DNA of 64,000 nt, taken from contig DGSO01000020.1 in the NCBI GenBank assembly GCA_002393945.1, positions 38,517 to 102,516 on the forward strand, read 5' to 3'. This DNA comes from Bacteroidales bacterium UBA4360. Lineage in GTDB: Bacteria > Bacteroidota > Bacteroidia > Bacteroidales > UBA932. A model generated the notes under the pieces. The model did not search any database. It was given only the letters and a program-made list of their open reading frames with translations, and was not told the origin of the DNA. Position numbers and translations under genes: made by a program. Positions within the stretch are counted from its first letter, which is position 1. Each line of letters opens with the position of its first letter. Positions 1 through 63,998 of this stretch are shown here, piece by piece.

Positions 1-503
1 TCCAGGTTCATCAGTATGTCTCCCTTGAGGACACCCGGTTTCAGGCAGTTGGCTCCGGTCATGCCGGTTTCCTCATCATAGGTTACAAGAACCTCTACCG
101 GACCGTGCTTTACGCTCTTGTCTTCAAGGACGGAAAGTCCCATCGCAACACCGATGCCGTTGTCTGCGCCAAGGGTTGTGCGGTCTGCGGTGACCCACTC
201 GCCGTCTACATAGGCATTGATAGGGTCCGTGAGGAAATTGTGGTCCGAGTCGGAAGTCTTCTGGGGAACCATATCCATGTGTCCCTGGAGAATAACACCC
301 TTGCGATTTTCGAAGCCGGGAGTTGCAGGAACGCGGATAATGATGTTACCGGTGTCGTCCTTGATTGTTTCAAAACCGTGGGATACACCCCAGTTGTAGA
401 GATATTCAATCACTTTTCCCTCATGCTTGGAGGGTCTGGGAATCTGGGTAAGTGCGTAGAAATTATTCCACACTACCTGGGGTTTAAGGTCTTTGATACT
501 CAT
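1..503 (-). CDS. pepD: Aminoacyl-histidine dipeptidase (M20 family); 3' part lies outside the window
   Basis: Absent from the ORF track. Manual translation from ATG at 503 gives MSIKDLKPQVVWNNFYALTQIPRPSKHE...LQGHMDMV...TLGADNGIG...DEETGMTGA, the PepD metal-binding motifs. Frame is open to the window edge. Confidence 0.93.
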   Translation of the reverse strand, partial: MSIKDLKPQVVWNNFYALTQIPRPSKHEGKVIEYLYNWGVSHGFETIKDDTGNIIIRVPATPGFENRKGVILQGHMDMVPQKTSDSDHNFLTDPINAYVDGEWVTADRTTLGADNGIGVAMGLSVLEDKSVKHGPVEVLVTYDEETGMTGANCLKPGVLKGDILMNL

Positions 504-518
504 AGTGTTATTGTTTGT

Positions 519-1535
519 TTATTGGTTTACGGGCATTTCGCTTTCCCTGCCCAGCTGATATACGGGGACACGGGTTTCCATGATTGGATTCCCGTCTTCC
601 AGTATCCTCAAGCGGCAGATAGCAGGAATGCGATAATGTATTGTATATGTCTTGTCACTTTTCTTTCTGGCATCCTGCTGGGAGGCATCGGACCTAACGT
701 CCGGAACGGATACCGGAGTGAATTCCAGTTCGTATGGCCTGGACTTTCCGCGGGCTTCCCTGGTTAGCGAACCGTCTTCTGAAAGGTAAAACGCCGTGTA
801 GCGGTTGGTGCGGGCAGTAGCCGACGGCATCACTTCAAAGTATGCCGTGAATTCCCTGGTGACGGAATAACCGGTGAACAGCTTCAGGTATTCCTCTTCC
901 ACCTTTGTGAGTTCTCCCAGTGCCGCCGCCATGGATTCCCCGCTGTATGAAGCATCCGTGTTGCCGATTGCGATATTGAACCGTTCCTCCCTTGCCTTGA
1001 GAATCATCTCTGCAGCCGCTGCAGCCTTGTCTTCAAGCGTTTTCGTGACAGTGACTACATTCTCTACCGGATAACGGACCTCGGCGGTGTCAGTCTTTAC
1101 CGTACGATAGGTGATATGCTTTTCCTGCTTCGTCGGCCCAGTAATGCCAGAGGCGGAGAAATCGGCCGATACCTCAGGCACGAAACGCCACTGCGCACTG
1201 CCGGACTTGTCGGAGAAGGAGATGAGTCCCTGGGCGGACATTTCCATCATGACGGGGCTCATTGCGGGGCAACTGTAACGGGGAGAGTAAGGATCGGCCT
1301 CTACCTTGGGGACGATCTTTATTTCCTTAACGTATGTGTCCTTGACGTCCATAGCAGGGACATTCAGATTGAGCATTTCCCTTGCGAACTGGGAATAAGG
1401 TCCGGCGAAATGGACAGTCTGTACGGCTGTCACCTCCAATGTAAATGAGGAATAAGGCAGTGAATATGTCACATCCTGGGCCTTGGACAAGGCGCAGGAC
1501 AATACAAGGGAGAAGAGAAGAACTGCTTTTCTCAT
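519..1535 (-). CDS. Secreted protein, DUF4831-like
   Basis: 338 aa, signal peptide ending SKA-Q, YSLP...GPYSQFA...L N-terminal pattern recalled for this Bacteroidota family. Confidence 0.6.
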   Translation of the reverse strand: MRKAVLLFSLVLSCALSKAQDVTYSLPYSSFTLEVTAVQTVHFAGPYSQFAREMLNLNVPAMDVKDTYVKEIKIVPKVEADPYSPRYSCPAMSPVMMEMSAQGLISFSDKSGSAQWRFVPEVSADFSASGITGPTKQEKHITYRTVKTDTAEVRYPVENVVTVTKTLEDKAAAAAEMILKAREERFNIAIGNTDASYSGESMAAALGELTKVEEEYLKLFTGYSVTREFTAYFEVMPSATARTNRYTAFYLSEDGSLTREARGKSRPYELEFTPVSVPDVRSDASQQDARKKSDKTYTIHYRIPAICRLRILEDGNPIMETRVPVYQLGRESEMPVNQ

Positions 1536-2526: not shown

Positions 2527-4050
2527 ATGTTTAAAGGACAACCTAAAGGACTGTTTGCTCTCGCACTGGCCAACACGGGCGAGCGCTTCGGTTACTACAC
2601 CATGATTGCGGTTTTCGCCCTCTTCCTGAGAGCCAATTTCGGCCTCTCCGCAGGAACAGCCGGAACCATCTACAGTTCATTCCTCATGCTGGTATACTTC
2701 TTCCCCCTCATCGGCGGTATCCTTGCCGATAAATTCGGTTTCGGGAAGATGGTCACCACGGGTATCATAGTCATGTTCCTGGGATATCTGCTCCTGTCGA
2801 TTCCCCTTGGCAGCGGCACCGTAGCACTTGTGGGAATGCTGGCGGCCCTGGTCCTGATAGGCTTTGGAACGGGACTGTTCAAAGGCAATCTCCAGGTAAT
2901 GGTGGGAGACCTCTACAACGATCCTCAGTACGCATCCAAGCGTGACTCCGGCTTCTCCCTCTTCTACATGGCAATCAATATCGGCGCACTGTTTGCCCCT
3001 ACTGCCGCCATCAAGATTCGCGAATGGGCTATGACCCTCGGATTCGACGGCAACTCCGCATACCATTTCTCCTTTGCCGTAGCATGCGCATCCCTTATCG
3101 TATCAATCGCCATCTACTACGCATTCAGAGGATGGTTCAAGCACGTTGAAGGCGGTACCAAAAAGGGTGAGAAAGCCGCTGTCGTGGACACCCTCACCCC
3201 CGAACAGACCAAAAAGCGCATGGTTGCACTGTTCCTGGTTTTCGCCGTGGTCATCTTCTTCTGGATGTCCTTCCACCAGAACGGCCTCACCCTCACCTAT
3301 TTTGCCGATGAGTTCACAGAGCGCAGCGCAGAAGGCATCGCCTCCATGCCGTTCAATGTATGGAACCTCGTCGCTGTAATCGCCATAGTATATGCCCTCT
3401 TCTCCATCTTCGAGAAGGATGCATCCAAGAAAGGAAAATGGATCGGCGTGGGCGTTGTCGTTCTCGCAGTCGCCTTCCTTATCTGGCAGTACACCCGCCT
3501 GAGCGGTTCCATCGAGATCAGCGCACCTATTTTCCAGCACTTCAACCCGTTCTACGTGGTAGCCCTCACCCCTGTTTCGATGGCCATTTTCGGCGCACTT
3601 GCAAACAAGGGCAAAGAGCCTTCAGCACCCCGCAAGATTGCATACGGCATGCTTGTGGCTGCAGTGGCTTTCGGCCTCATGGCTTTCGCATCCATCGGCC
3701 TCAATACTCCTGATGCACAGGCCGCCGCACGCGAAGCCGGACTTCCCGAGACCCTGGTTTCTCCCTACTGGCTCATCACCGTTTATCTGATTCTCACATT
3801 CGGCGAGCTTCTCCTCAGCCCTATGGGTATCTCATTCGTTTCCAAGGTAGCTCCTCCCAAGTACAAGGGTATGATGATGGGTATGTGGTTCGTGGCCACC
3901 GCCCTCGGCAACTTCCTCGTACAGGTTGGCGGACACCTCTGGGGCGGTCTTCCCCTCTGGGTTGTATGGGCAGTGTTCCTCGGCGTCTGCGTCATCTCTG
4001 CTATCTTCATGTTCTCCATGATGAAGAAACTTGAAGCGGCAACCGAATAA
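2527..4050 (+). CDS. Proton-dependent oligopeptide (POT/PTR) MFS transporter
   Basis: ExxERFGYY-type motif (NTGERFGYYTM), GTGLFKGN, FSLFYMAINIGAL, about 14 hydrophobic segments. Confidence 0.93.
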   Translation: MFKGQPKGLFALALANTGERFGYYTMIAVFALFLRANFGLSAGTAGTIYSSFLMLVYFFPLIGGILADKFGFGKMVTTGIIVMFLGYLLLSIPLGSGTVALVGMLAALVLIGFGTGLFKGNLQVMVGDLYNDPQYASKRDSGFSLFYMAINIGALFAPTAAIKIREWAMTLGFDGNSAYHFSFAVACASLIVSIAIYYAFRGWFKHVEGGTKKGEKAAVVDTLTPEQTKKRMVALFLVFAVVIFFWMSFHQNGLTLTYFADEFTERSAEGIASMPFNVWNLVAVIAIVYALFSIFEKDASKKGKWIGVGVVVLAVAFLIWQYTRLSGSIEISAPIFQHFNPFYVVALTPVSMAIFGALANKGKEPSAPRKIAYGMLVAAVAFGLMAFASIGLNTPDAQAAAREAGLPETLVSPYWLITVYLILTFGELLLSPMGISFVSKVAPPKYKGMMMGMWFVATALGNFLVQVGGHLWGGLPLWVVWAVFLGVCVISAIFMFSMMKKLEAATE

Positions 4051-14347: not shown

Positions 14348-14392
14348 CAAATGGGCAATTAAAACAATAACCACAAGCCCTGATATAACACT

Positions 14393-15985
14393 ATGGCTGA
14401 AAAAAACCTATTGCTTGGAGACGAGGCACTTGCTCTGGGTGCCATCCATGCCGGCCTTTCCGGCGTTTACGCCTACCCCGGCACGCCTTCTACAGAGATT
14501 ACGGAGTATATCCAGGGACACCCCCTAACTCGTGAAAGAAACATCCACTGCGACTGGTCTTCAAACGAGAAGACTGCAATGGAAGGAGCCCTTGGAATGT
14601 CTTATGCAGGCAAGCGTGCACTCGTGTGCATGAAACACGTTGGCATGAACGTGTGCGCCGATCCTCTCATGGGTTCTGCAATGACAGGAGCGAACGGCGG
14701 TCTCATCATAGCCGCCTGCGACGATCCTTCCATGCACAGTTCACAGAACGAGCAGGATTCCCGCTTCTGGGGCACCTTCGGCATGCTGCCCGTATTCGAA
14801 CCTTCCAACCAGCAGGAGACCTATAATATGACCCGCGCGGCGCTGGATTATTCGGAAAAACGCGGCATCCCTGTCATCATGAGGCTGACTACCCGCATGG
14901 CCCACAGCCGCGCCGTGGTAGAAAGCGCCCCTATGCGCGAACAGAATCAGCTCCACTACCCGGAAAAAGCCCGCCAGTGGGTTACGCTTCCTGTCAATGC
15001 AAGGGTAAGGAACCGCGAACTCATCAAGGATTATGCGCTCTTCGAAGAGGATGCAGCCGCCTCCGAGTTCAACTGGCTCAAGGACGGCCCGGACAGGAGT
15101 CTCGGCATAATTGCCTGCGGTATAGGATACAACTACCTCATGGAGAACTATCCCGACGGCTGCCCGTTCCCGGTTCTCAAGGTGAGCCAGTATCCTTTCC
15201 CCAGGAAACTTGCGCTTGAACTAGCCTCGAAGGTGAAGGCCGTACTCGTCATAGAAGAAGGCCAGCCGCTGGTAGAGGAACGCATGAAGGGATACTTCCC
15301 CACTCCCGTACCTGTAAAGGGACGTCTTGACGGGACTCTTCCCAGGGATGGAGAACTCTCACCGGATGCCGTCCGCGCTGCAGTGGGCCTCCCTGCACTT
15401 CCGCAGTACAACACATCGGAAGTGGTGGTTCCGCGTCCGCCGGCACTTTGCCAGGGCTGCGGGCACAGGGACTTCTATACGGCTCTCAACAATGCCCTGA
15501 AGGATTATCCCGGAGCGAGGGTATTCGGCGATATCGGCTGCTACACCCTTGGCTGGATGCCTCCGTTCAACAGCCTTCATACCTGCGTGGAAATGGGCGC
15601 TTCATGCACCATGGCCCAGGGCGCCGCATTCAGCGGAACCTGGCCTGCAGTTGCCGTCATCGGCGATTCCACCTTCACCCACAGCGGCATGACAGGCCTT
15701 CTTGACGCAGTGAACAGCAAGGCCGATATAACCCTCTGCATATCCGACAACCTCACCACCGGCATGACCGGCGGCCAGGATTCTGCCGGCACAGGCCGCA
15801 TCGAAGCCATCTGCCAGGGACTCGGCGTCGAACCTGAGCATATCCGCACTATCGTCCCTCTCCCCAAGAACTATCCGGACATGGAGAAAGTCATCAAGGA
15901 GGAACTCGACTACCACGGCGTTTCCGTCATCGTATGCCGCCGCGAATGTATCCAGACACTTAGAAGACACGCTGCCAAAAAGTAA
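14393..15985 (+). CDS. iorA: Indolepyruvate ferredoxin oxidoreductase alpha subunit
   Basis: YPGTPSTEI, NEKTA, HSSQNEQDSR, LCQGCGHR, GDIGCY, IGDSTFTHSG (TPP binding), TGMTGGQ. Confidence 0.93.
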   Translation: MAEKNLLLGDEALALGAIHAGLSGVYAYPGTPSTEITEYIQGHPLTRERNIHCDWSSNEKTAMEGALGMSYAGKRALVCMKHVGMNVCADPLMGSAMTGANGGLIIAACDDPSMHSSQNEQDSRFWGTFGMLPVFEPSNQQETYNMTRAALDYSEKRGIPVIMRLTTRMAHSRAVVESAPMREQNQLHYPEKARQWVTLPVNARVRNRELIKDYALFEEDAAASEFNWLKDGPDRSLGIIACGIGYNYLMENYPDGCPFPVLKVSQYPFPRKLALELASKVKAVLVIEEGQPLVEERMKGYFPTPVPVKGRLDGTLPRDGELSPDAVRAAVGLPALPQYNTSEVVVPRPPALCQGCGHRDFYTALNNALKDYPGARVFGDIGCYTLGWMPPFNSLHTCVEMGASCTMAQGAAFSGTWPAVAVIGDSTFTHSGMTGLLDAVNSKADITLCISDNLTTGMTGGQDSAGTGRIEAICQGLGVEPEHIRTIVPLPKNYPDMEKVIKEELDYHGVSVIVCRRECIQTLRRHAAKK

Positions 15986-31122: not shown

Positions 31123-31797
31123 ATGCGCATAGATATTCTCTCCGTAGTACCCGAACTTCTTGACTCTCCCCTCAGCCATTCAATACCCGGCCGCGCCGTA
31201 AAGAAAGGGCTTGTGGAAATACATGTCCACAACCTCAGGAAATACGGCCTTGGGCCGCGCCAGACAGTAGATGACTACTCCTACGGCGGTGACGCCGGAA
31301 TGGTAATGATGGTGGAACCCGTTTTCAGGTACATAGAGGAGCTCACGGCAGAACGCCATTACGATGAAATCATCTATATGGCTCCTGACGGTGAAATCCT
31401 TAATCAGGGAATCGCCAACGAACTTTCCCTGAAGGAGAACATCATAATCCTCTGCGGCCATTACAAAGGAATTGACGAGCGCATCCGCGAACATCTTATA
31501 ACCCGCGAAATCTCCGTCGGAGACTTCGTGGTCTCCGGAGGCGAAATTCCCGCCGCCCTTCTTGCCGACAGCATCATCCGCCTCATCCCGGGAGTCCTCA
31601 CCGATGAGACATCTGCCCTGTCCGACTCATTCCAGGACGGGCTTGTCTCCCCTCCGGTCTATACGCGTCCGGCATCTTTCAACGGATGGGACGTACCTGA
31701 AGTCCTGCTGAGCGGGAACCCGAAACTGATACGAGCCTGGCAGGACGAAAAGGCCGTAGAACGCACCCGTGAACGCCGTCCGGAGCTTCTGAAATAG
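31123..31797 (+). CDS. trmD: tRNA (guanine37-N1) methyltransferase
   Basis: DDYSYGGDAGMVM, LCGHYKGIDER, EISVGDFVVSGGE, VPEVLLSGN. Confidence 0.97.
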   Translation: MRIDILSVVPELLDSPLSHSIPGRAVKKGLVEIHVHNLRKYGLGPRQTVDDYSYGGDAGMVMMVEPVFRYIEELTAERHYDEIIYMAPDGEILNQGIANELSLKENIIILCGHYKGIDERIREHLITREISVGDFVVSGGEIPAALLADSIIRLIPGVLTDETSALSDSFQDGLVSPPVYTRPASFNGWDVPEVLLSGNPKLIRAWQDEKAVERTRERRPELLK

Positions 31798-31813
31798 TTT
31801 TTATAATTTACAC

Positions 31814-31849
31814 AGAAAAACAGCCCGCAATCGCTGCGGGCTGTTTTCT
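31814..31849. terminator. Bidirectional intrinsic terminator
   Basis: AAAACAGCCCGCA-ATCGC-TGCGGGCTGTTTT, a 13-bp perfect stem including the A/T tracts. Confidence 0.9.
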
Positions 31850-31920
31850 GGTTAGTTAGTAGTGTATTCTTAACTTAAGAAGGTTAATTTGTTGGTTAGA
31901 AGAAGCGTTTCATTTTCTGA
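31816..31920 (-). ncRNA. Candidate small RNA (about 105 nt) containing the 5-codon ORF MKRFF
   Basis: Consensus promoter at 31953-31923 points into about 100 nt with no gene and ends at the 31814-31849 terminator; A/C-rich body. Confidence 0.6.
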
Positions 31921-31922
31921 TG

Positions 31923-31953
31923 CAAATATATGAATACTTTTTCGAAACGCAAA
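31923..31953 (-). promoter_or_regulatory. Consensus Bacteroidota promoter, orphan
   Basis: TTTG (31953-31950), 19 nt, TATATTTG (31930-31923). Confidence 0.8.
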
Positions 31954-31987
31954 ATTTTTCTAACTTTTCCTTCATTAATAAAAATTT

Positions 31988-34189
31988 TTAAAAATTGAGC
32001 GCCAACTTCACCGTCCAGTTGCGTGGAGCCTGAGGATAAACGCCGATTCCGGAAGAGACCGTATCCGTAGCCGGATCGTAGCTCTCCCATCTCCACCCGG
32101 AGGCATAGTAAAGGTTATTGAGGAGATTGTTCACATACGCAGAAACTACAAGGGACGAGCGGCCGATGAAAGATACGGTGCGCTGCACCATCAGGTTCAT
32201 CACCCCATAGGCCGGAACGGTCATTTCCTCACGCATGGAATTGTCGAGGTACTGTTTTCCCACATATTTGTAATCGGCCGTGACTAGCCATTTCCTGGAA
32301 GGTGATGCTGAAAGACGTACCATTCCCACCGTGGAAGGAGACATAAGCATGGTGGTCTTCCCGTAATGGACAGCGTGAGTCGCTGAGTAATCCTCATACG
32401 GGACATAGGAGGTATAATCGGCAATCTCGTTGACTGATAGCGTAAGGTTGCCGTCGGCACGGAGCCAGCGGCTCATCTGCCAGGCGCCGGCAAGTTCAAC
32501 TCCCCTTCTCCAGGCGCGGGGGACGTTCTCCTTGATGGCATATCCCGAAGACGAGAGCTTTCCCGTTTCAAGCAGCATGTCCGTATACTCCATCAGGTAT
32601 ACGTTTGCCGATGCAGAGAGCCTCCTGCCCCCGAACTGCCAGCCCAGTTCGATGTCGGTCATCTTTTCGGGGACTATATCGGCCCCGTCACCTTTGACGT
32701 TCTCCTTGATGTCTCCCCTGCCGGGCTCGCGGTTGCCGAGGGCGACGGACGCAAAGAAACTGTGCCGGCCGAAGAGCGCCTTGACGCCTGCCCTGGGGTT
32801 GAAGAAATCCCACTTCCTGTGATAATCGAGCATATCGGCAGGGTTTGAGCCGTATTCGATGAAATCGTCGTCCCGGCCGTCAAGATCGTAGCCGATGGTT
32901 CTGTATTGGAGGTCGGCATAGGCGGTGAGCCATGCGAAGGGATGGTATTCCGCCCTTGCAAAAACGTTGGCTTCCTTTTTCCAACCAGTGTTTCCGTACC
33001 AGTCCACATCCCCGTAATTGTAGGACGAGCCAAGCTGTTTTGTCCAAAGGAGTTCTCCCCAGTGGCCTCCCCTGTATTTGGAGAAGTTCACGCCCGCAGT
33101 GAGATCTAGCCCGCGCGTGCTGTAGCGGAGATTCGAATTCAGGACCCACAGGTCGTTGTCCATCATCTTGCGGTAAGTCATGTCGGAACGGGCGGGCGTT
33201 CCTTCCGGGAGGTCCGTAAAGCCGTAATTCTTCAGTTTCTTATTGCTTTTATAATACTCGTCGTAGCCTTCTCCATTGGTATAATTGAGAGTGGTGCTCC
33301 AAGCGAGGTTCGGCCTCAGGGCACGCGTGTAATTGCCCTGGAAATGGTTCTGGACGTAATTGTCTGTCTGGTTGGGATAATAATACACATTCCCCAAATC
33401 ATCGTAATACTCTCCGGCACCGTTATATGTCCTGTCCTTCTTGTACTGCTCTATGTCTATGCCGTCCCAGGTGATTCCGCTACGCTGTTTTCCCCTCAGA
33501 TAAGTAAAACGGAGGGACTGCCCGCGTCCAAGCCAGCCCAGCATGAAAAATGCCGAATTCGACTGCACGAATGCATTCCGGATATAACCGTCAGTGGTTC
33601 CCTTTGCATACGCCGCGCTTGCATACAGCCCGTGCCTGCTAATTCCGGTCGAACCCGAATGCGTGACCATCTGCGTATCGTATGAGCCCCAGCTGTGTTC
33701 CGTCCTGCCCCAGCCATTAGGCGTTGCAAATGCGGTGTTCATATTGATGCTGGCGCCGAAGGCACCCGCGCCGTTTGCGCTTGTGCCAAGGCCTCTCTGG
33801 ACCTGTACGCCGGAAATCAGCGCCGTCAGCGCCGGAATATTAACCCAGAAGACTTCCTGGGACTCGGCGTCATTCAGGGTGATTCCGTTGAGAGTGACGT
33901 TAATCTGGGAGCCTTTGCTGCCGCGGATAGTCATTGCAGAATTGCCGAGACCGGTACCGCCTTCATTGTAAGTAACCACGGAAGGCAGCAGGTTAAGCGT
34001 CATCGGAATTGAATTGGATGGATTCTGGGACTCGAGCTGAGCCTTGCCCATTTCGGAAAAAGTGACAGGAGTGTTCTTTCCTGCACGGGATGCAGATACA
34101 ACAACGGAGTCCAGGCGTTCAACCTTCTCCTGTGCCGATGCAACGGCACACACGGCAGCCAGAACTGCCACAAAGCATAGTTTTTTCAT
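31988..34189 (-). CDS. TonB-dependent receptor, probably for thiamine
   Basis: Signal peptide ASA-Q, DSVVVSA TonB box, RGSKGSQINVTLNGI plug, C-terminal Phe; TPP riboswitch directly upstream. Confidence 0.9.
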   Translation of the reverse strand: MKKLCFVAVLAAVCAVASAQEKVERLDSVVVSASRAGKNTPVTFSEMGKAQLESQNPSNSIPMTLNLLPSVVTYNEGGTGLGNSAMTIRGSKGSQINVTLNGITLNDAESQEVFWVNIPALTALISGVQVQRGLGTSANGAGAFGASINMNTAFATPNGWGRTEHSWGSYDTQMVTHSGSTGISRHGLYASAAYAKGTTDGYIRNAFVQSNSAFFMLGWLGRGQSLRFTYLRGKQRSGITWDGIDIEQYKKDRTYNGAGEYYDDLGNVYYYPNQTDNYVQNHFQGNYTRALRPNLAWSTTLNYTNGEGYDEYYKSNKKLKNYGFTDLPEGTPARSDMTYRKMMDNDLWVLNSNLRYSTRGLDLTAGVNFSKYRGGHWGELLWTKQLGSSYNYGDVDWYGNTGWKKEANVFARAEYHPFAWLTAYADLQYRTIGYDLDGRDDDFIEYGSNPADMLDYHRKWDFFNPRAGVKALFGRHSFFASVALGNREPGRGDIKENVKGDGADIVPEKMTDIELGWQFGGRRLSASANVYLMEYTDMLLETGKLSSSGYAIKENVPRAWRRGVELAGAWQMSRWLRADGNLTLSVNEIADYTSYVPYEDYSATHAVHYGKTTMLMSPSTVGMVRLSASPSRKWLVTADYKYVGKQYLDNSMREEMTVPAYGVMNLMVQRTVSFIGRSSLVVSAYVNNLLNNLYYASGWRWESYDPATDTVSSGIGVYPQAPRNWTVKLALNF

Positions 34190-34191
34190 AA

Positions 34192-34264
34192 ATCCTTACG
34201 GCGGTATCAACCGCATCAAGTTCAAAGGGTGTAATCTCAATCGGGAGTTTCCCGATACCCCTAT
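34192..34264 (-). ncRNA. TPP riboswitch
   Basis: Minus strand reads AGGGGTATCGGGAAACTCCCGA-TTGAGA-TTACACCCTTTGAACTTGATGCGGTTGATACCGCCGTAAGGA, with TPP consensus blocks (UGAGA, ACCC, GAAC-UGAU, P5 GCGG/CCGC, GUA-GGA). Confidence 0.9.
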
Positions 34265-34269
34265 ATAAT

Positions 34270-35022
34270 TTATTTTTTCAATTCAATCCTATACATCCGC
34301 GGCCAGTTCTTGCCCGTCAGGTAGACATGGCCCTCCGAATCCACGGCTATGCCGTTAAGCACATCTGTATCCTTGGTCCTGAGACTCGCGGGCAGAAGTC
34401 CCCTGCAGTCTACCGTTGCCTCCACCTTGCCGTTTGAGGGATTGATGATGGCAATCATGTCTGACGTATAGACATTGGCCCAGATCTTCCCGTCTATCCA
34501 TTCCAGTTCGTTAAGGTACTGAAGGCTTCTGTCACGGAGTGTCACGCGAAGACGCTTCTGAACCTTGAGGTTGCTGTCAAGGAAATAGAGCGTAGAGGTG
34601 CCGTCGCTTGCGATGAGCTGTTTTCCGTCGGTGGTGAGTCCCCATCCTTCACGCGGATATGCCAGCGTAGCCTTGTAGGTGAGCGTTTTCGCATCGTACC
34701 TGAAGGCCAGCTTGTTTGTCCAGGTGAGGACATAAAGGTCATCGCCAAGGATCACGGAGCCCTCACCGAAATACTTCGATGACAGCTTCTTGATTGCCGT
34801 CACTTCCCCGGTCTCAAGGTCCACGGTACGGATTGAACTCTCTCCCCACTGCCCGGTGGTCTCGTACAGCACCCCGTCATGGAAGAACAGCCCCTGCGTG
34901 TAAGCATGGACATCGTGAGGGTACTCTGCCGTCACCTTTACCTTATACTCCTTCACCTGCGCACTTGAACAGGCGGAAATCAGGAGCCCGGCAACCAGGC
35001 CTATTATGCTGTTGATTCTCAT
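34270..35022 (-). CDS. Glutaminyl-peptide cyclotransferase, type I (beta-propeller), lipoprotein
   Basis: Lipobox LISAC; YTQGL, ETTG, FGEG, LTW, EGWGLT, LNELE, VLNGIA. Confidence 0.9.
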   Translation of the reverse strand: MRINSIIGLVAGLLISACSSAQVKEYKVKVTAEYPHDVHAYTQGLFFHDGVLYETTGQWGESSIRTVDLETGEVTAIKKLSSKYFGEGSVILGDDLYVLTWTNKLAFRYDAKTLTYKATLAYPREGWGLTTDGKQLIASDGTSTLYFLDSNLKVQKRLRVTLRDRSLQYLNELEWIDGKIWANVYTSDMIAIINPSNGKVEATVDCRGLLPASLRTKDTDVLNGIAVDSEGHVYLTGKNWPRMYRIELKK

Positions 35023-35087: not shown

Positions 35088-35100
35088 CCACGCTAAAAAA

Positions 35101-35406
35101 GGCAGGACGATCTGTCGCGGCGCTTCGGCGCTGAGGAAAGTCCGCACAGGAAAGGGCGCCCGTCTGCGGAAAGCGCAGCAGGGAGTAATCTTTGGCACGC
35201 GATAACAGAAAACAACCGCCGCAAGGCAAGGGTGAAAACGCGGGGTAAGAGCCCACGACTATGCATGGCGACATGCAAAGGGTATCGCACACGGGCCTGC
35301 AAGACCAAATATACCGGCAGATTAAGGGCTGCCCGCTCTTTGCCGGGGGGTAGGTTGCGAAGATAAATGACAGATTCAAAAACAGAAAGCGGCTTACGGC
35401 CCTGCC
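35101..35406 (+). ncRNA. rnpB: RNase P RNA, bacterial type A
   Basis: GAGGAAAGTCC, AAGGGTGAAA, CAAGACCAAATA, AGATAAATGAC, ACAGAAAGCGGCTTAC; P1 GGCAGG/CCTGCC; compensatory P4 CCGC/GCGG. Confidence 0.95.
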
Positions 35407-35438
35407 TTTTTTGTAAAGAAACAGTTAACTTATACAAT

Positions 35439-40728: not shown

Positions 40729-41748
40729 ATGGCAAAAGCACCAGAAGAAATCAATGCAGCCAAGCTCAAAGCACTGCAGGCTACCATTGACAAGATTGAG
40801 AAAGATTACGGGAAAGGCACCATCATGAAGCTGGGAGACCAGCCTGAATGGGATTCCTCACAGGTCATCCCCAGCGGTTCCATTTCACTGGACCACGCAC
40901 TCGGAATCGGCGGATATCCCAAAGGCCGCATCATCGAAATCTACGGACCGGAATCCTCCGGTAAGACCACCCTCGCAATCCATGCAATTGCAGAGGCCCA
41001 GAAGATGGGTGGCATCGCAGCTATCATCGACGCAGAACACGCCTTTGACCGCAGCTATGCAAAGGCCCTCGGAGTAGACCTCGACACCCTCCTCATCTCC
41101 CAGCCGGACAACGGCGAACAGGCCCTCGAAATTGCCGACAACCTCATCCGCAGCGGCGCCGTGGATATCATTGTCATCGACTCCGTGGCAGCCCTTACCC
41201 CCAAGGCCGAGATTGAAGGCGAAATGGGCGACAACAAGGTAGGCCTCCAGGCCCGCCTCATGAGCCAGGCCCTCCGCAAGCTCACGGCAAACATCTCGAA
41301 AACAAACACTTGCTGCATATTCATCAACCAGCTCAGGGAGAAAATCGGCATCATGTTCGGAAATCCCGAGACCACAACCGGCGGCAACGCCCTCAAGTTC
41401 TATGCTTCGGTGCGTCTGGACATCCGCCGCACCACCCAGATCAAGGACGGCGAGGACGCCCTCGGCAACCACGTAAAGGTGAAAGTTGTAAAGAACAAGA
41501 TGGCTCCGCCTTTCAAGAAGGCCGAATTCGACATCGTCTTCGGTGAAGGCATTTCCAGGAGCGGAGAAATCGTTGACCTCGGAGTTGAACTGGACATCAT
41601 CAAGAAGTCCGGCTCATGGTTCTCCTACAACGACACCAAACTGGCCCAAGGCCGCGAGGCTGTGAAGAAGCTCATGATCGACAATCCTGAGCTCGCCGAA
41701 GAAATCGAAGCCCGCATCCGCGAGGCCATGACTAAGGTTCAGGACTGA
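40729..41748 (+). CDS. recA: Recombinase A
   Basis: [34 protein letters not shown]. Confidence 0.98.
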
Positions 41749-43646
41749 TGGTGAAAAGACACCTTTCCACATTTGCATCACTCGCATGGAACATCCTGCT
41801 GGTGATGCTTCTTTTTACCCTGTGCCGTCTCACATTCTTTGCCCTGAACAAGGGATTGTATCCTGAAGTGGGGGCGCCCGAGCTGCTCAGAATGTGCCTC
41901 GGAGGGCTGCGGTTTGATATATCGGCAATACTCTACACCAACTCCGTCCTGGTGCTTCTCTGGCTCCTTCCGCTTCCTGTCCGTGAGAAGGAGTGGTACA
42001 GGAAAACCCTGAAGATACTGTTCGTCGCGGCAAATTTCATCTGCCTGGCTGCAAATCTCGGGGATTCCGTCTATTTCCCTTATGTGAGTCACAGGACAAC
42101 TATGGGAGTGTTTCAGGAGTTCCAGGGAGACGGACAGGTATTCAAGATTCTCCTGAATGAAACTGTCAGCCACTGGTATCTTCTTCTCGAAGGGCTCCTC
42201 ATGCTGGCCGCGCTCATATGGCTTTATGCCGAGCCCGGAAAAGACAAAGCAAGATGGGTGGCAGCCGACTACATTCTCTCACTCGCCATCATCGCCGCCG
42301 TTCTCTATCCCTTTGTCGGAGGCCTCAGGGGCGGATTTGGTATCACGACGCGCCCCATTGCGCCTAATGACGCCAATCTCTATACCGACAAACCTCTCCA
42401 GACCGGTATAGTACTCAATACTCCGTTCTGCATGTACAGGACAATCGGAGAACAGCCTTATCCGGAGTTCAATTTCCTTGAAGACCCATCGGCAATATTT
42501 CCCACAAGGAAACACTATGCTTCCGAAGGCATGCGTAAAAAGAATGTAGTCATTCTCATTCTCGAGAGCTTTTCTGCCTCTTACAGCGAATATCTCACCG
42601 GTTTGCAGGGGCATCCGCAGCCGGGTTATATGCCGTTTCTGGATTCGCTCATGAAGGAATCCCTCATATTCCGCCACTCCTACGCCAACGGCCGCATCAG
42701 CATAGATGCCCTGCCGTCGGTCATGTGCTGCATACCTGCGATAACAGAACCGTTTTTCCTGAGCCTGTACAGCCAGAACATGATAAGTGGCATGGCGGCC
42801 GAACTGGGCAGGGAAGGCTATTCCAGCGCATTCTACCACGGTGCAAACCGTTCTTCACTTGCACTTGCAGGCTTTGCTCACCGCTGCGGTTTCCAAAGGG
42901 AATACTCCCGGGAAGACTATGCCGATGAGACCGACTTTGACGGCACGTGGGGAATCTGGGATGCCCCTTTCCTGCAGTACTTCAGGGAAGGTATCAGTAA
43001 TCTCCCGGAGCCTTTCCTTGCAACAGTCTTTACACTCAGTTCCCACAATCCGTTCGCTCTTCCGGAAGGCGTATCATACCCGGAGGGCTCTCTTCCCATA
43101 CACCGTGTAATCCGGTATTCCGACGATGCCCTCAAGGCGTTTTTCAGAGAAGCCCAGAAAGAGCCCTGGTTCAATAACACGCTGTTTGTAATCACGGGTG
43201 ACCATACAGGAGTGACAGACGTGGACGAATATAAGACCGACAACGGACGCTACCTTATTCCCATTCTCTTTTACACTCCGGACGGATCCCTGAAAGGACT
43301 GAGGGAAGGAACCGCCCAGCAGCTGGACATAAAGCCCACGGTATATGGCTACCTCGGTTATGACAAGCCGTTCATGAGCATGGGTGTCAATCTTCTTGAA
43401 ACGCCGGATGAAGAGACTTGTGCATTCTACTACAACGGGCTGTACGAGTTTGTCTCAAACGGATATCTCCTGACATTCAATGGAACCGGTTTCAGCGGCC
43501 TGTACCATTACACCACTGATCCTTTTCTGAATGAGAATCTGATATCTGTGGAAACGGAAGTGGCAGAAGATATGGAAATCCGTTTCAAGGCTCGCCTTCA
43601 GCAGCTTAACAGCCGCATGATCAACAATCAATTGACAGAAGACTGA
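41748..43646 (+). CDS. LTA synthase / sulfatase family membrane protein
   Basis: Five N-terminal TM helices; ILESF, TLSSHNPF, TGDH. Confidence 0.88.
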   Translation: MVKRHLSTFASLAWNILLVMLLFTLCRLTFFALNKGLYPEVGAPELLRMCLGGLRFDISAILYTNSVLVLLWLLPLPVREKEWYRKTLKILFVAANFICLAANLGDSVYFPYVSHRTTMGVFQEFQGDGQVFKILLNETVSHWYLLLEGLLMLAALIWLYAEPGKDKARWVAADYILSLAIIAAVLYPFVGGLRGGFGITTRPIAPNDANLYTDKPLQTGIVLNTPFCMYRTIGEQPYPEFNFLEDPSAIFPTRKHYASEGMRKKNVVILILESFSASYSEYLTGLQGHPQPGYMPFLDSLMKESLIFRHSYANGRISIDALPSVMCCIPAITEPFFLSLYSQNMISGMAAELGREGYSSAFYHGANRSSLALAGFAHRCGFQREYSREDYADETDFDGTWGIWDAPFLQYFREGISNLPEPFLATVFTLSSHNPFALPEGVSYPEGSLPIHRVIRYSDDALKAFFREAQKEPWFNNTLFVITGDHTGVTDVDEYKTDNGRYLIPILFYTPDGSLKGLREGTAQQLDIKPTVYGYLGYDKPFMSMGVNLLETPDEETCAFYYNGLYEFVSNGYLLTFNGTGFSGLYHYTTDPFLNENLISVETEVAEDMEIRFKARLQQLNSRMINNQLTED

Positions 43647-49590: not shown

Positions 49591-49621
49591 TTTGCAAATC
49601 AAAGAAATTGTCGTACCTTTG
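49591..49621 (+). promoter_or_regulatory. Consensus Bacteroidota promoter, orphan
   Basis: TTTG (49591-49594), 19 nt, TACCTTTG (49614-49621). Confidence 0.8.
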
Positions 49622-49624
49622 TAT

Positions 49625-49743
49625 CCGGATTGAGGAAGTAAGGGTTCTCCTCACGGAATCAATCTATTGGTTATTAGTTTTAGTGTTATTAATTATGTGG
49701 TTAGTAGGAGCGTCCGCCTGTGAAGGTCGACGCTTTCTGTTTT
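49625..49743 (+). ncRNA. Candidate trans-acting sRNA (about 120 nt)
   Basis: Own promoter; 5' hairpin (CCG/CGG plus TGAGGA/TCCTCA); G/U-rich unstructured core 49665-49707; terminator GAGCGTC-C-GCCT-GTGA-AGGT-C-GACGCTT followed by TCTGTTTT. Confidence 0.7.
49707..49743 (+). terminator. Intrinsic terminator with a GNRA (GUGA) loop
   Basis: Stem 49707-49735 plus a U-rich tail. Confidence 0.75.
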
Positions 49744-49797: not shown

Positions 49798-49801
49798 GAA
49801 G

Positions 49802-49872
49802 AGGTGCGAAGCGGAATCGAACCGCTGTAGCAGGTTTTGCAGACCTGTGCCTGACCACTCGGCCATCGCACC
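49802..49872 (-). tRNA. trnC: tRNA-Cys (GCA), CCA not encoded
   Basis: GGTGCGA/TCGCACC acceptor stem, anticodon arm CAGGT-CTGCAAA-ACCTG, GGTTCGATTCC, U73 discriminator. Confidence 0.97.
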
Positions 49873-62511: not shown

Positions 62512-62892
62512 CTATTCGCCGATAAATGCCTTGTATGCAGCTGCATCCATGAGAGCGTCAAGCTCTGATGCGTCGCTCATTTCAACCTTGATGATCCAGC
62601 TGGCGAATGCATCCTCATTGACCTTTTCAGGAGCGTCTTCAAGCTCTCCGTTAACTTCTACCACGGTGCCGGAAACGGGGCTGATGAGGTCTGAGGAGGC
62701 CTTTACGCTCTCGAGGGCGCCGAATTCTTCACCTGCCTTTACAGCGTCGTCAACTTCGGGCATGTCCACATAGGTGATGTCGCCCATTTCTTTCTGTGCG
62801 AAATCGGAAACTCCGATAACTGCGATATTTCCTTCAACTTTTACCCATTCGTGGGACTCGGAATACTTGAGTCCTTCAGCAATTTTAGACAT
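62512..62892 (-). CDS. gcvH: Glycine cleavage H protein
   Basis: SHEW, ESVKASSD lipoyl-Lys. Confidence 0.96.
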   Translation of the reverse strand: MSKIAEGLKYSESHEWVKVEGNIAVIGVSDFAQKEMGDITYVDMPEVDDAVKAGEEFGALESVKASSDLISPVSGTVVEVNGELEDAPEKVNEDAFASWIIKVEMSDASELDALMDAAAYKAFIGE

Positions 62893-62900
62893 AGTACGTG

Positions 62901-63998
62901 TTATTTTTTATAGTTAGTTTGATAAAATCTTTTCTTGACGACCTTTCCGGGGAAAGTCTTCTTGCGGATTCTGATCTGGAGGGGTGTATCCAGTGCAGAA
63001 TATGCCTTGTCTACAAGCGCGAAGCAGACGCTCTTGTCAAGGGATATGGAATGATAGCCTGTGGTTACAACGCCGACGGGCTGCTCATCCAGAGTCTCCA
63101 CGGGATAACCCGCACGCGGAATGGCCTTGTCTTCAATCTCAATGCCGACGAGTTTCCTGTCGATTGCGCCGGCCTTCTGTGCGAGAAGCGCCTCCTTGCC
63201 GATAAAATCCTTGTCGTATTTGCAGAACATACCAAGGCCAGCCATCACAGGGCTGATTTCGGGGCTGAGTTCGTCTCCATACAGAGGAAGTCCTGCCTCG
63301 AAACGGAGAGTGTCGCGGCAGCCAAGCCCGCAGGGTGCGACTCCGGCGGCGAGGAAAGTCTTCCAGAGCTCCACTATGATTTCAGGAGCGGTATAGATTT
63401 CAAACCCGTCCTCTCCGGTATAGCCTGTGCGGCTGAGTATAAGGCGCTTACCCTTGTATTCGAGGTCGCAGAAGGTGTAGAACTCAAGTTTCTCGGCCTC
63501 TTTCATTCCAAGCACCTTGATGAGGGTGTTCTCTGCATCGGGGCCCTGGAGTGCGATCTGGCCCCATGCCGGGGACTCATTGCGCACCGTGCAGTCAAAG
63601 CCCTTTGCATGCTCCTGGATCCATGCGAAATCCTTGTCTATGTTCGCAGCATTCACGACGAGAAGGAACGATTCCGGCTTGAATTCCCTGTAGACCAGAA
63701 GGTCGTCCACTACGCCGCCTTTAGGGTAGCACATCATTCCGTAAAGGACCTTTCCGGGCTGGAAACTGCGGATCTCGTTCGTAAAAATATAGTTCACGAA
63801 ATCCTCCGCTCCGGGGCCTTCCACAAAGATTTCTCCCATGTGCGACACGTCAAACATACCCACTTTCTGCCTTACGGCAAGGTGCTCCTCTGTAATTGAG
63901 GAATACTGGATGGGCATCATGAATCCGGCAAAGGGACTCATCTTGGCTCCAAGGGCGATGTGCTCTCCATAGAGGCACGTCCTCTGAAGATCATCGAT
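62901..63998 (-). CDS. gcvT: Glycine cleavage T protein (aminomethyltransferase); start outside the window
   Basis: FDVSHMG, SRTGYTGEDGFE, GLGCRDTLRFEAG; frame stays open upstream of the track's ATG (IDDLQRTCLYGEHIALGAKM) to the window edge. Confidence 0.96.
   Translation of the reverse strand: MDDLQRTCLYGEHIALGAKMSPFAGFMMPIQYSSITEEHLAVRQKVGMFDVSHMGEIFVEGPGAEDFVNYIFTNEIRSFQPGKVLYGMMCYPKGGVVDDLLVYREFKPESFLLVVNAANIDKDFAWIQEHAKGFDCTVRNESPAWGQIALQGPDAENTLIKVLGMKEAEKLEFYTFCDLEYKGKRLILSRTGYTGEDGFEIYTAPEIIVELWKTFLAAGVAPCGLGCRDTLRFEAGLPLYGDELSPEISPVMAGLGMFCKYDKDFIGKEALLAQKAGAIDRKLVGIEIEDKAIPRAGYPVETLDEQPVGVVTTGYHSISLDKSVCFALVDKAYSALDTPLQIRIRKKTFPGKVVKKRFYQTNYKK

Follow-up and report, generated by a model that had tools for sequence, protein, structure and literature searches.

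The stretch analysed here (the window) comprises 64,000 nucleotides of contig DGSO01000020.1 from Bacteroidales bacterium UBA4360. The element under study is RNA1, a predicted small RNA (sRNA) gene between trmD and a TonB-dependent receptor gene (Table 1). A second predicted sRNA gene, RNA2, lies at 49.6 kb. A sequence-only reading of the window had described RNA1 as an orphan sRNA complementary to RNA2, and as a candidate sponge for it.

The RNA1 gene and its transcription

On the minus strand, RNA1 is preceded by a promoter of the form TTTG-N19-TATATTTG. Its body (CAUCAGAAAAUGAAACGCUUCUUCUAACCAACAAAUUAACCUUCUUAAGUUAAGAAUACACUACUAACUAACCAG, minus strand) is G-poor. In the minimum free energy fold, the body is single-stranded except for one small hairpin and the terminator. 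It contains three single-stranded CUAAC(C/U) repeats; the second copy of CTAACCA noticed in the sequence-only reading is located on the RNA1 strand at 31899-31893. The terminator consists of the stem CAGCCCGCA / UGCGGGCUG (31843-31821) and the loop GCGAUU, followed by U5 at 31820-31816. This U run sets the length of the RNA at about 100 nt. The minus-strand promoter and the strong terminator proposed earlier are both present, at either end of an RNA of this size.

A small-protein gene or leader peptide was also considered at RNA1 and rejected. The mini open reading frame AUG AAA CGC UUC UUC UAA (31913-31896, minus strand; MKRFF*) is probably not coding, because its AUG (31913-31911) is ACG in the ortholog L104, and other family members show a different frame with respect to block A.

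Table 1. Coordinates of the RNA1 and RNA2 loci in the window.
Feature	Position	Strand	Remarks
trmD	31123-31797	+	PF01746
Intergenic region	31798-31987		between trmD and the TonB-dependent receptor gene
RNA1	31816..31917	-	predicted sRNA of ~100 nt; transcription start site predicted near 31914-31918; 3' end at the U run
RNA1 intrinsic terminator	31816..31847	-	bidirectional, shared with convergent trmD
RNA1 block B (AAUACACUACUAACUAACCAG)	31848..31868	-	predicted partner RNA2 49667-49690, 18-19 bp, 3 bulges
RNA1 small middle hairpin (UUCUUAA G UUAAGAA)	31867..31881	-	between the pairing blocks; unpaired in the RNA1:RNA2 model
RNA1 block A plus linker (AAACGCUUCUUCUAACCAAC AAAUUAA)	31884..31912	-	predicted partner RNA2 49689-49714
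RNA1 -7 promoter element TATATTTG	31930-31923	-	direct reading; Bacteroidota TAnnTTTG type
RNA1 -33 promoter element TTTG	31953-31950	-	direct reading; kept in the orthologs L094 and L104
TonB-dependent receptor gene	31988-34189	-	Plug domain; upstream neighbour of RNA1
Thiamine pyrophosphate (TPP) riboswitch	34175-34272	-	68 bits; precedes the receptor gene
RNA2 promoter TTTG(49591-49594)-N19-TACCTTTG(49614-49621)	49591..49621	+	direct reading
RNA2	49623..49743	+	5' hairpin, C-free single-stranded core, terminator
RNA2 stretch predicted to be covered by RNA1	49667..49713	+	modules UUGGUUAUUAG, UUUUAGUGUUAUUAAUUAU, GUGGUUAGUAG and start of the terminator 5' arm (GAGCGU)

The promoter was surveyed in 86 distinct members of the RNA1 family, and the -7 box was sought 25-115 nt upstream of block B. 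A TAnnTTTG box was found on the RNA strand in 83/86 members, and on the opposite strand in 2/86. The full promoter, with the -33 TTTG at 18-22 nt spacing, was found on the RNA strand in 60 of the 86 members and on the opposite strand in none (0/86). The orthologs L094 and L104, which come from two other species and were retrieved by neighbour-protein look-ups, have equal promoter spacing and both single-stranded blocks, with a differing middle hairpin.

The RNA of a further ortholog, L138, was mapped at >=97% identity in two sheep-rumen metatranscriptomes (X1 and X23; assembler contigs). Adapter-bounded inserts were found at 3171-3277 (X1, 36.5x) and at 3165-3277 (X23, 50.6x), corresponding to 107-113 nt. 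This short species is the only coverage of the region; 700 nt of the upstream receptor gene are at 0x. The L138 promoter is TTTG(3121-3124)-N19-TATCTTTG(3144-3151). The 5' ends of the inserts lie 9-15 nt past the expected start, which was assumed to be about 5 nt after the -7 box. The inserts of both runs end alike at the last base of block B (about 31851 in the window), upstream of the terminator hairpin; this common 3' end may reflect processing of the RNA, or else biased priming at the hairpin. The libraries carry no strand information, because their adapter orientations are opposed: the read-2 primer lies at the RNA 5' side in X1, and the read-1 primer in X23.

Some caveats apply to this evidence. 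There is no terminator between the receptor stop codon and RNA1. A bovine metatranscriptome contig (31869-32020) extends from the receptor coding sequence through the stop codon and the promoter into RNA1. Since this contig spans the junction, read-through from the riboswitch-controlled gene, or DNA carry-over, also occurs. In the window itself, the 5' end of RNA1 is a predicted one. Contig depth over the conserved cores pools k-mers from many species, and depth peaks were therefore discounted in favour of the species-specific mapping of L138. Nevertheless, RNA1 is not merely the 3' untranslated region (UTR) of the receptor mRNA, because the comparative promoter evidence is joined by an expressed ortholog with a silent upstream gene. 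The separate gene assumed in the sequence-only reading thus agrees with the promoter counts and with the L138 transcript. Taken together, RNA1 is very probably a real, conserved sRNA with its own promoter.

The TonB-dependent receptor under the TPP riboswitch is probably an outer-membrane transporter of thiamine. The output of RNA1 may be partly coupled to thiamine status via read-through from the receptor gene.

A trmD-linked RNA family in uncultured Bacteroidales

Metagenomes were searched with the exact 18-mer AATACACTACTAACTAAC (31868-31851). At least 119 loci were found in rumen and human-gut assemblies, with about 95 distinct members among the matches listed. RNA1 is not the orphan it had been taken for, but one of at least 119 loci linked to trmD. 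Of the 119 loci among the matches listed, 89 have trmD at a distance of no more than 3 kb; in most members the element has the orientation of trmD and sits 150-260 nt downstream of it. The RNA1 gene is flipped in the window's clade, where it comes after the receptor gene and runs convergently to trmD, and its own promoter is present in both arrangements. An RNase P RNA of class A is encoded at 35099-35412 (plus strand, 180 bits) in the window, and the RNA1 homolog in L117 likewise has an RNase P RNA nearby. The TrmD proteins of the RNA1 loci are labelled as Candidatus Cryptobacteroides, Bacteroidales, or Rikenellaceae metagenome-assembled genomes (MAGs). TrmD identity among genomes with the RNA1 family is only 76-94%. 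The nearest RecA relatives in GTDB likewise indicate a Cryptobacteroides-type host.

An alignment of 89 distinct sequences, including that of the window, revealed a common layout. The variable 5' part, often a hairpin, is followed by (C)UUCUAACCAAC and then AAUAAUUA; the 3' half contains a small hairpin (typically ACCUU…AAGGU), then AAUACACUACUAACUAACC, and then the terminator. A 5' motif resembling GAAAUGAAAC recurs across several subfamilies. The UCUAAC-A of block A is conserved to more than 90% across the family. The terminator has a GNRA-like loop, and 8/10 of its consensus pairs show compensatory changes among the 89 sequences. The terminators of both sRNA families usually have GNRA-type loops (GUGA, GCGA, GAGA), which are located at 31829-31835 and 49719-49725 in the window, and the closing pair covaries between A-U and U-A. 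The position of the middle hairpin is occupied by other stems in homologs (ACCUU/AAGGU, GCC/GGC, UUACC/GGUAA), and this hairpin is the most variable part of RNA1 among metatranscriptome contigs.

The invariance of 18 nt of block B in the metagenome set is forced, because 31868-31851 was the exact search pattern. The first 18 nt of block B are identical also in three orthologs found independently via neighbouring proteins. The last bases differ, being CCAG in the window, CUAG in L104, and CCGA in L094. A profile built without the window sequence (nhmmer) matches 31912-31847 with E=5e-12 when all members are used, and the profile of clade B gives 1.6e-17. Metatranscriptome contigs match only the RNA1 core (31849-31910) and diverge on either side, which suggested a conserved element in differing contexts. 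Strain-level contigs are identical to the RNA1 locus and hence uninformative.

Neither at the window nor at 11 homolog loci did any Rfam 15 family reach its threshold. At RNA1, the strongest of the weak matches was BTnc060 (RF04184), with 35 bits against a gathering threshold of 228.9. In a RecA-centred scan of GTDB genomes (±10 kb flanks), neither RNA was present, and synteny was lost past about 3 kb in the species returned. The literature, searched by sequence and topic, gave no description of RNA1 or RNA2. A phage or mobile origin of RNA1 was rejected, as the phage collection contained no match; four IMG/VR matches to block B were due to chance, inside unrelated sequence.

Judged by these comparisons, RNA1 is a member of a large trmD-linked sRNA family that has no Rfam entry, and its hosts are Cryptobacteroides-type Bacteroidales. 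The family is widespread, abundant, and uncatalogued, and its bacteria are common in rumen and gut, and uncultured. Its conserved promoter and structure can serve RNA family databases and MAG annotation. The near-invariant single-stranded block of 18-19 nt implies a conserved partner, even if the pairing with RNA2 fails.

Complementarity to RNA2 and the possible roles of RNA1

RNA2 also has its own promoter, which is identical in L244/L245 (a second genome that carries both sRNA genes) and conserved in the RNA2 ortholog L237. These loci were found by look-ups of RecA, TrmD, and epimerase homologs. The RNA2 core (GUUAUUAGUUUUAGUGUUAUUAAUUAUGUGGU) is invariant in 7 homologs with differing 5' hairpins and terminators, although this identity is partly forced by the search patterns. 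Rumen contigs free of the search-pattern constraint list no variants in RNA2 49663-49707, at a core depth of 150-400. RNA2 was ruled out as GibS, FopS, or rteR by covariance model. The GibS model (RF04182) scored 17.7 bits at RNA2 against a cut-off of 115, with no match at RNA1; the rteR model (RF04181) scored 21-32 bits at RNA2 against a threshold of 72. A tRNA-Cys(GCA) gene (49801-49872, minus strand) stands tail-to-tail with RNA2. RNA2 homologs also occur in the IMG/VR-labelled contigs L228 (5540-5650), L229 (780-895), and L235 (13070-13185). They start about 15 nt past the stop of a gene ending in …GIPILTMDEF…, which we take, as a guess, to be ligA-like. This arrangement looks like a 3'-UTR type without an obvious promoter of its own, unlike RNA2 of the window.

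The predicted RNA1:RNA2 duplex contains about 40 pairs in three blocks, which are co-linear and antiparallel, with the middle hairpin looped out. RNA1 5'-ACGCUUCUUCUAACCA (31908-31893) and RNA2 5'-UGGUUAGUAGGAGCGU (49698-49713) form 15/16 pairs with one G-U (RNAduplex). The AAAUUAA of RNA1 pairs with UUAAUU of RNA2. Block B (31868-31849) contributes 18-19 pairs with 49667-49690, interrupted by three bulges. On the plus strand, 31849-31868 (TGGTTAGTTAGTAGTGTATT) and 49668-49690 (TGGTTATTAGTTTTAGTGTTATT) align at 19 positions with three small gaps. The sequence-only reading had reported this alignment; the complementarity to the RNA2 seed proved to be longer than it claimed.

That reading had also proposed a comparison of the pairing energy with shuffles. 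The whole-body duplex has -35.9 kcal/mol, compared with -20.3±3.3 for dinucleotide shuffles, and 0/1000 shuffles reach it. When intramolecular structure is included, the cofold ΔΔG is -20.4 against -12.0±2.9, and 2/300 shuffles reach it. The duplex ranks about tenth among the non-self windows of the 64 kb, where GC-rich coding windows score alike. For block A, RNA2 ranks first of all non-self partners in the 25,584 windows of the 64 kb (-24.6 kcal/mol; next -20.1; background -7.7±3.0). The complementarity between RNA1 and RNA2 is therefore beyond chance in the window genome.

The predicted targets of RNA2 bear on the role of RNA1. The strongest matches of the RNA2 core to translation-initiation regions are in an iorA-like TPP-dependent gene (start at 14393; AAUAACCA…AUAACACUAUG; 14360-14395, plus strand; -24.2 kcal/mol), gcvH (62892-62925, minus strand; -22.4), and pepD (501-530, minus strand; -18.1). 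The mean for gene interiors is -12.1±2.9 kcal/mol. The pepD start region reads AAUAACACUAUG, as the earlier reading had it, with the ATG at 503-501 on the minus strand. The heptamer ATAACAC has six non-self copies in 128 kb of sequence, and three of these precede a start codon by no more than 15 nt. These matches suggest a GcvB-like amino-acid regulon for RNA2. RNA1 itself has no preference for start regions (mean -8.5, against -9.5 for gene interiors), but carries look-alikes of the predicted mRNA sites of RNA2 (AAUACACUA, CUAACCA, and ACUAACUA), which the sequence-only reading had partly noticed. This combination fits a model in which RNA2 is the mRNA repressor and RNA1 is the target mimic.

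Since RNA1 resembles a composite of RNA2 target sites, it is most likely a decoy (sponge) that would relieve the repression of RNA2 targets; we hold this assignment tentatively, at somewhat less than even probability. RNA1 would be transcribed from its own Bacteroidota-type promoter, to which read-through from the receptor gene may add. The two G-poor blocks, kept apart by the hairpin, would pair with the entire C-free seed of the abundant RNA2 and with the start of its terminator stem. The same seed is predicted to be complementary to the initiation regions of amino-acid catabolism genes (iorA-like, gcvH, pepD). RNA1 would occupy RNA2, and might also destabilise it or open its terminator stem. 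Repression of the RNA2 targets would then be relieved. What the analysis shows is the gene with its family, promoter, and terminator, the expression of an ortholog, and the complementarity in silico; that the two RNAs pair in vivo, which of them titrates the other, and what follows from the pairing are inferred.

Conservation of the pairing gives a divided picture. In the closely related genome L244/L245, about 16 kb separate the two sRNA genes, and their pairing blocks are identical to those of the window with diverged flanks; this is consistent with selection on both RNAs. The distance is 18 kb in the window, where a sulfatase-family gene by recA (41748-43646, plus strand) is present that L244/L245 lack. 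In the window's clade, the z values for complementarity to the RNA2 core range from -2.6 to -3.9. Of the two checks named in the sequence-only reading, co-occurrence was seen in this second genome, with identical blocks at both loci, and covariation was not.

Several results weigh against the decoy. The sole further pair within one genome is invariant, and there is hence no linked covariation. Across the family, complementarity to the RNA2 core of the window is marginal against composition-matched shuffles (median z -1.7), and the median falls to -0.9 for the part of RNA1 outside the search pattern. Antisense RNA2 is the best non-self match of the clade-B profile, but with E=0.7; the all-family and clade-A profiles miss it. 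Block B alone is weak against RNA2 (-14.5 kcal/mol, rank 6 of 25,584 windows), and the three bulges in its duplex are themselves conserved. Moreover, the strongest block pairs partly with the 5' arm of the RNA2 terminator stem, which is normally closed.

Some sequence variants would fit a matched change on both sides. The variant ACGCUUUUUCUAACCA, present in seven RNA1 loci, fits UGGUUAGUAAAAGCGU of L237, and the variant AUGCUCUUCUAACCA of L094 fits UGGUUAGUAGAGCGU of an X13 contig; neither combination can be placed in one genome. L104 and L238 cannot be paired because they belong to different species (78% nucleotide identity). If RNA1 is a sponge, ACGCUUCUUCUAACCA is expected to occur with UAGGAGCGU, ACGCUUUUUCUAACCA with UAAAAGCGU, and AUGCUCUUCUAACCA with UAGAGCGU within genomes. 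Such combinations would represent a compensatory change of 31902/31903 against 49707/49708, plus a matched indel of 1 nt.

Alternatively, RNA1 might be a genuine trans-acting sRNA with other RNA targets, its match to RNA2 being a by-product of opposite composition: RNA1 is rich in C, A, and U and repeats UAAC, and RNA2 has no C in its core and repeats GUUA. The weak family-wide z, the lack of significant profile matches outside the window's clade, and the unexceptional energy of block B with RNA2 all agree with this explanation. So does the retention of the 19-nt block B as an imperfect RNA2 match, bulges included. However, dinucleotide shuffles that keep the composition are still beaten in the window genome. 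Both blocks are co-linear on one partner, and the best site for block A in the 64 kb is RNA2. Furthermore, a search of about 3 Mb of related DNA for the perfect complement of block B gave nothing with 4 mismatches or fewer, and the pairing of RNA1 with start regions is weaker than with gene interiors. We regard other targets as rather unlikely, though as the most probable of the rival explanations.

In a stronger form of the RNA2 connection, the two RNAs would be an antisense pair, encoded in trans and coupled in evolution, and Bacteroidota would have its first sRNA/anti-sRNA switch. RNA1 would cover all three seed modules of a GcvB-like regulator of amino-acid catabolism, its 5' end would invade the terminator stem and thereby inactivate or destabilise the regulator, and the genes would co-evolve. 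The variants described above, ACGCUUUUUCUAACCA with UGGUUAGUAAAAGCGU and the shortening by one nucleotide on both sides, are suggestive but unlinked, and such coupling seems unlikely. RNA1 may have originated as an inverted copy of an RNA2-like gene.

The element could also be an RNA2 target within a 3' UTR, of the receptor mRNA in the window's clade or of the trmD mRNA in most genomes, with the short RNA as a by-product. The absence of a terminator after the receptor stop codon, the metatranscriptome contig that runs from the receptor coding sequence into RNA1, and the usual position 150-260 nt past trmD, in the same orientation, would be expected in this case. The dedicated promoter of 83/86 members is difficult to reconcile with a by-product, and it is kept where the orientation to trmD is flipped. 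In L138, the short RNA is abundant at zero coverage of the receptor gene upstream. A UTR target is thus quite improbable.

RNA1 might instead titrate a protein, such as an RRM-type Rbp of Bacteroidota, through its CUAAC(C/U) repeats, in the manner of CsrB/RsmY. The repeats lie in unstructured regions, and RbpB of B. thetaiotaomicron prefers single-stranded sRNA regions (PMC11697453). There are just three repeats, however, and the invariance of 18-19 nt in block B exceeds the needs of a short protein motif, which leaves little room for a protein decoy. Finally, the locus might have no function of its own, being a shared bidirectional terminator or UTR of convergent genes with a chance promoter-like sequence; the terminator does also serve trmD and the contig-level RNA data are unstranded, but more than 80 distinct homologs keep the single-stranded blocks, the promoter position, and the hairpins while TrmD is only 76-94% identical, and an ortholog yields a discrete and abundant RNA species, so that this explanation is highly improbable.

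With the decoy reading comes a concrete pair of sRNAs that can be put to the test, together with a candidate regulon (iorA-like, gcvH, and pepD).

Comparison with known sRNA systems

Few sRNAs of Bacteroidota have known targets, and post-transcriptional control in this phylum is poorly understood. To our knowledge, Bacteroidota lack both Hfq and ProQ. The literature searched contained no report of an sRNA sponge or an sRNA-sRNA pair in Bacteroidota. If the pairing is true, target-mimic sponges and GcvB-like amino-acid regulons would have arisen independently in a phylum without Hfq.

The SroC-GcvB pair of Salmonella and E. coli offers several parallels. SroC, like RNA1, is a short RNA with two sites complementary to the G/U-rich seed of an amino-acid and peptide regulator. 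It competes with the C/A-rich mRNA sites of that regulator, as RNA1 might do. The candidate regulon of RNA2 (gcvH, pepD, and the iorA-like gene) would follow a GcvB-like theme. However, SroC is cut from the gltIJKL mRNA, itself a GcvB target, whereas RNA1 is preceded by a conserved promoter of its own. SroC works together with Hfq and RNase E, while Bacteroidota have no Hfq. The two RNAs have no sequence relationship, and RNA1 is predicted to pair over a far greater length, about 40 bp in three blocks.

The sponges AgvB and AsxR of enterohaemorrhagic E. coli prophages, and RosA of Bacillus subtilis (a sponge of RoxS and FsrA), resemble RNA1 in being encoded by separate genes, each with a promoter and a terminator of its own. 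They mimic target sites and sequester a core-genome sRNA. AgvB and AsxR are prophage-borne, whereas RNA1 is located on the chromosome, in synteny with trmD. CcpA controls RosA.

The sRNAs GibS and FopS of Bacteroides thetaiotaomicron share their layout chiefly with RNA2: a sigma-ABfr -33/-7 promoter, a long AU-rich single-stranded seed, and a Rho-independent terminator. Their seeds pair across start codons, and their targets are mRNAs (PMC7366714, PMC11697453). The weak matches of BTnc060 over RNA1 and of rteR over RNA2 involve mainly terminators and AU-rich stretches. The known systems closest to RNA1 and RNA2 are SroC-GcvB, AgvB, AsxR, and RosA with respect to the proposed function, and GibS and FopS with respect to architecture.

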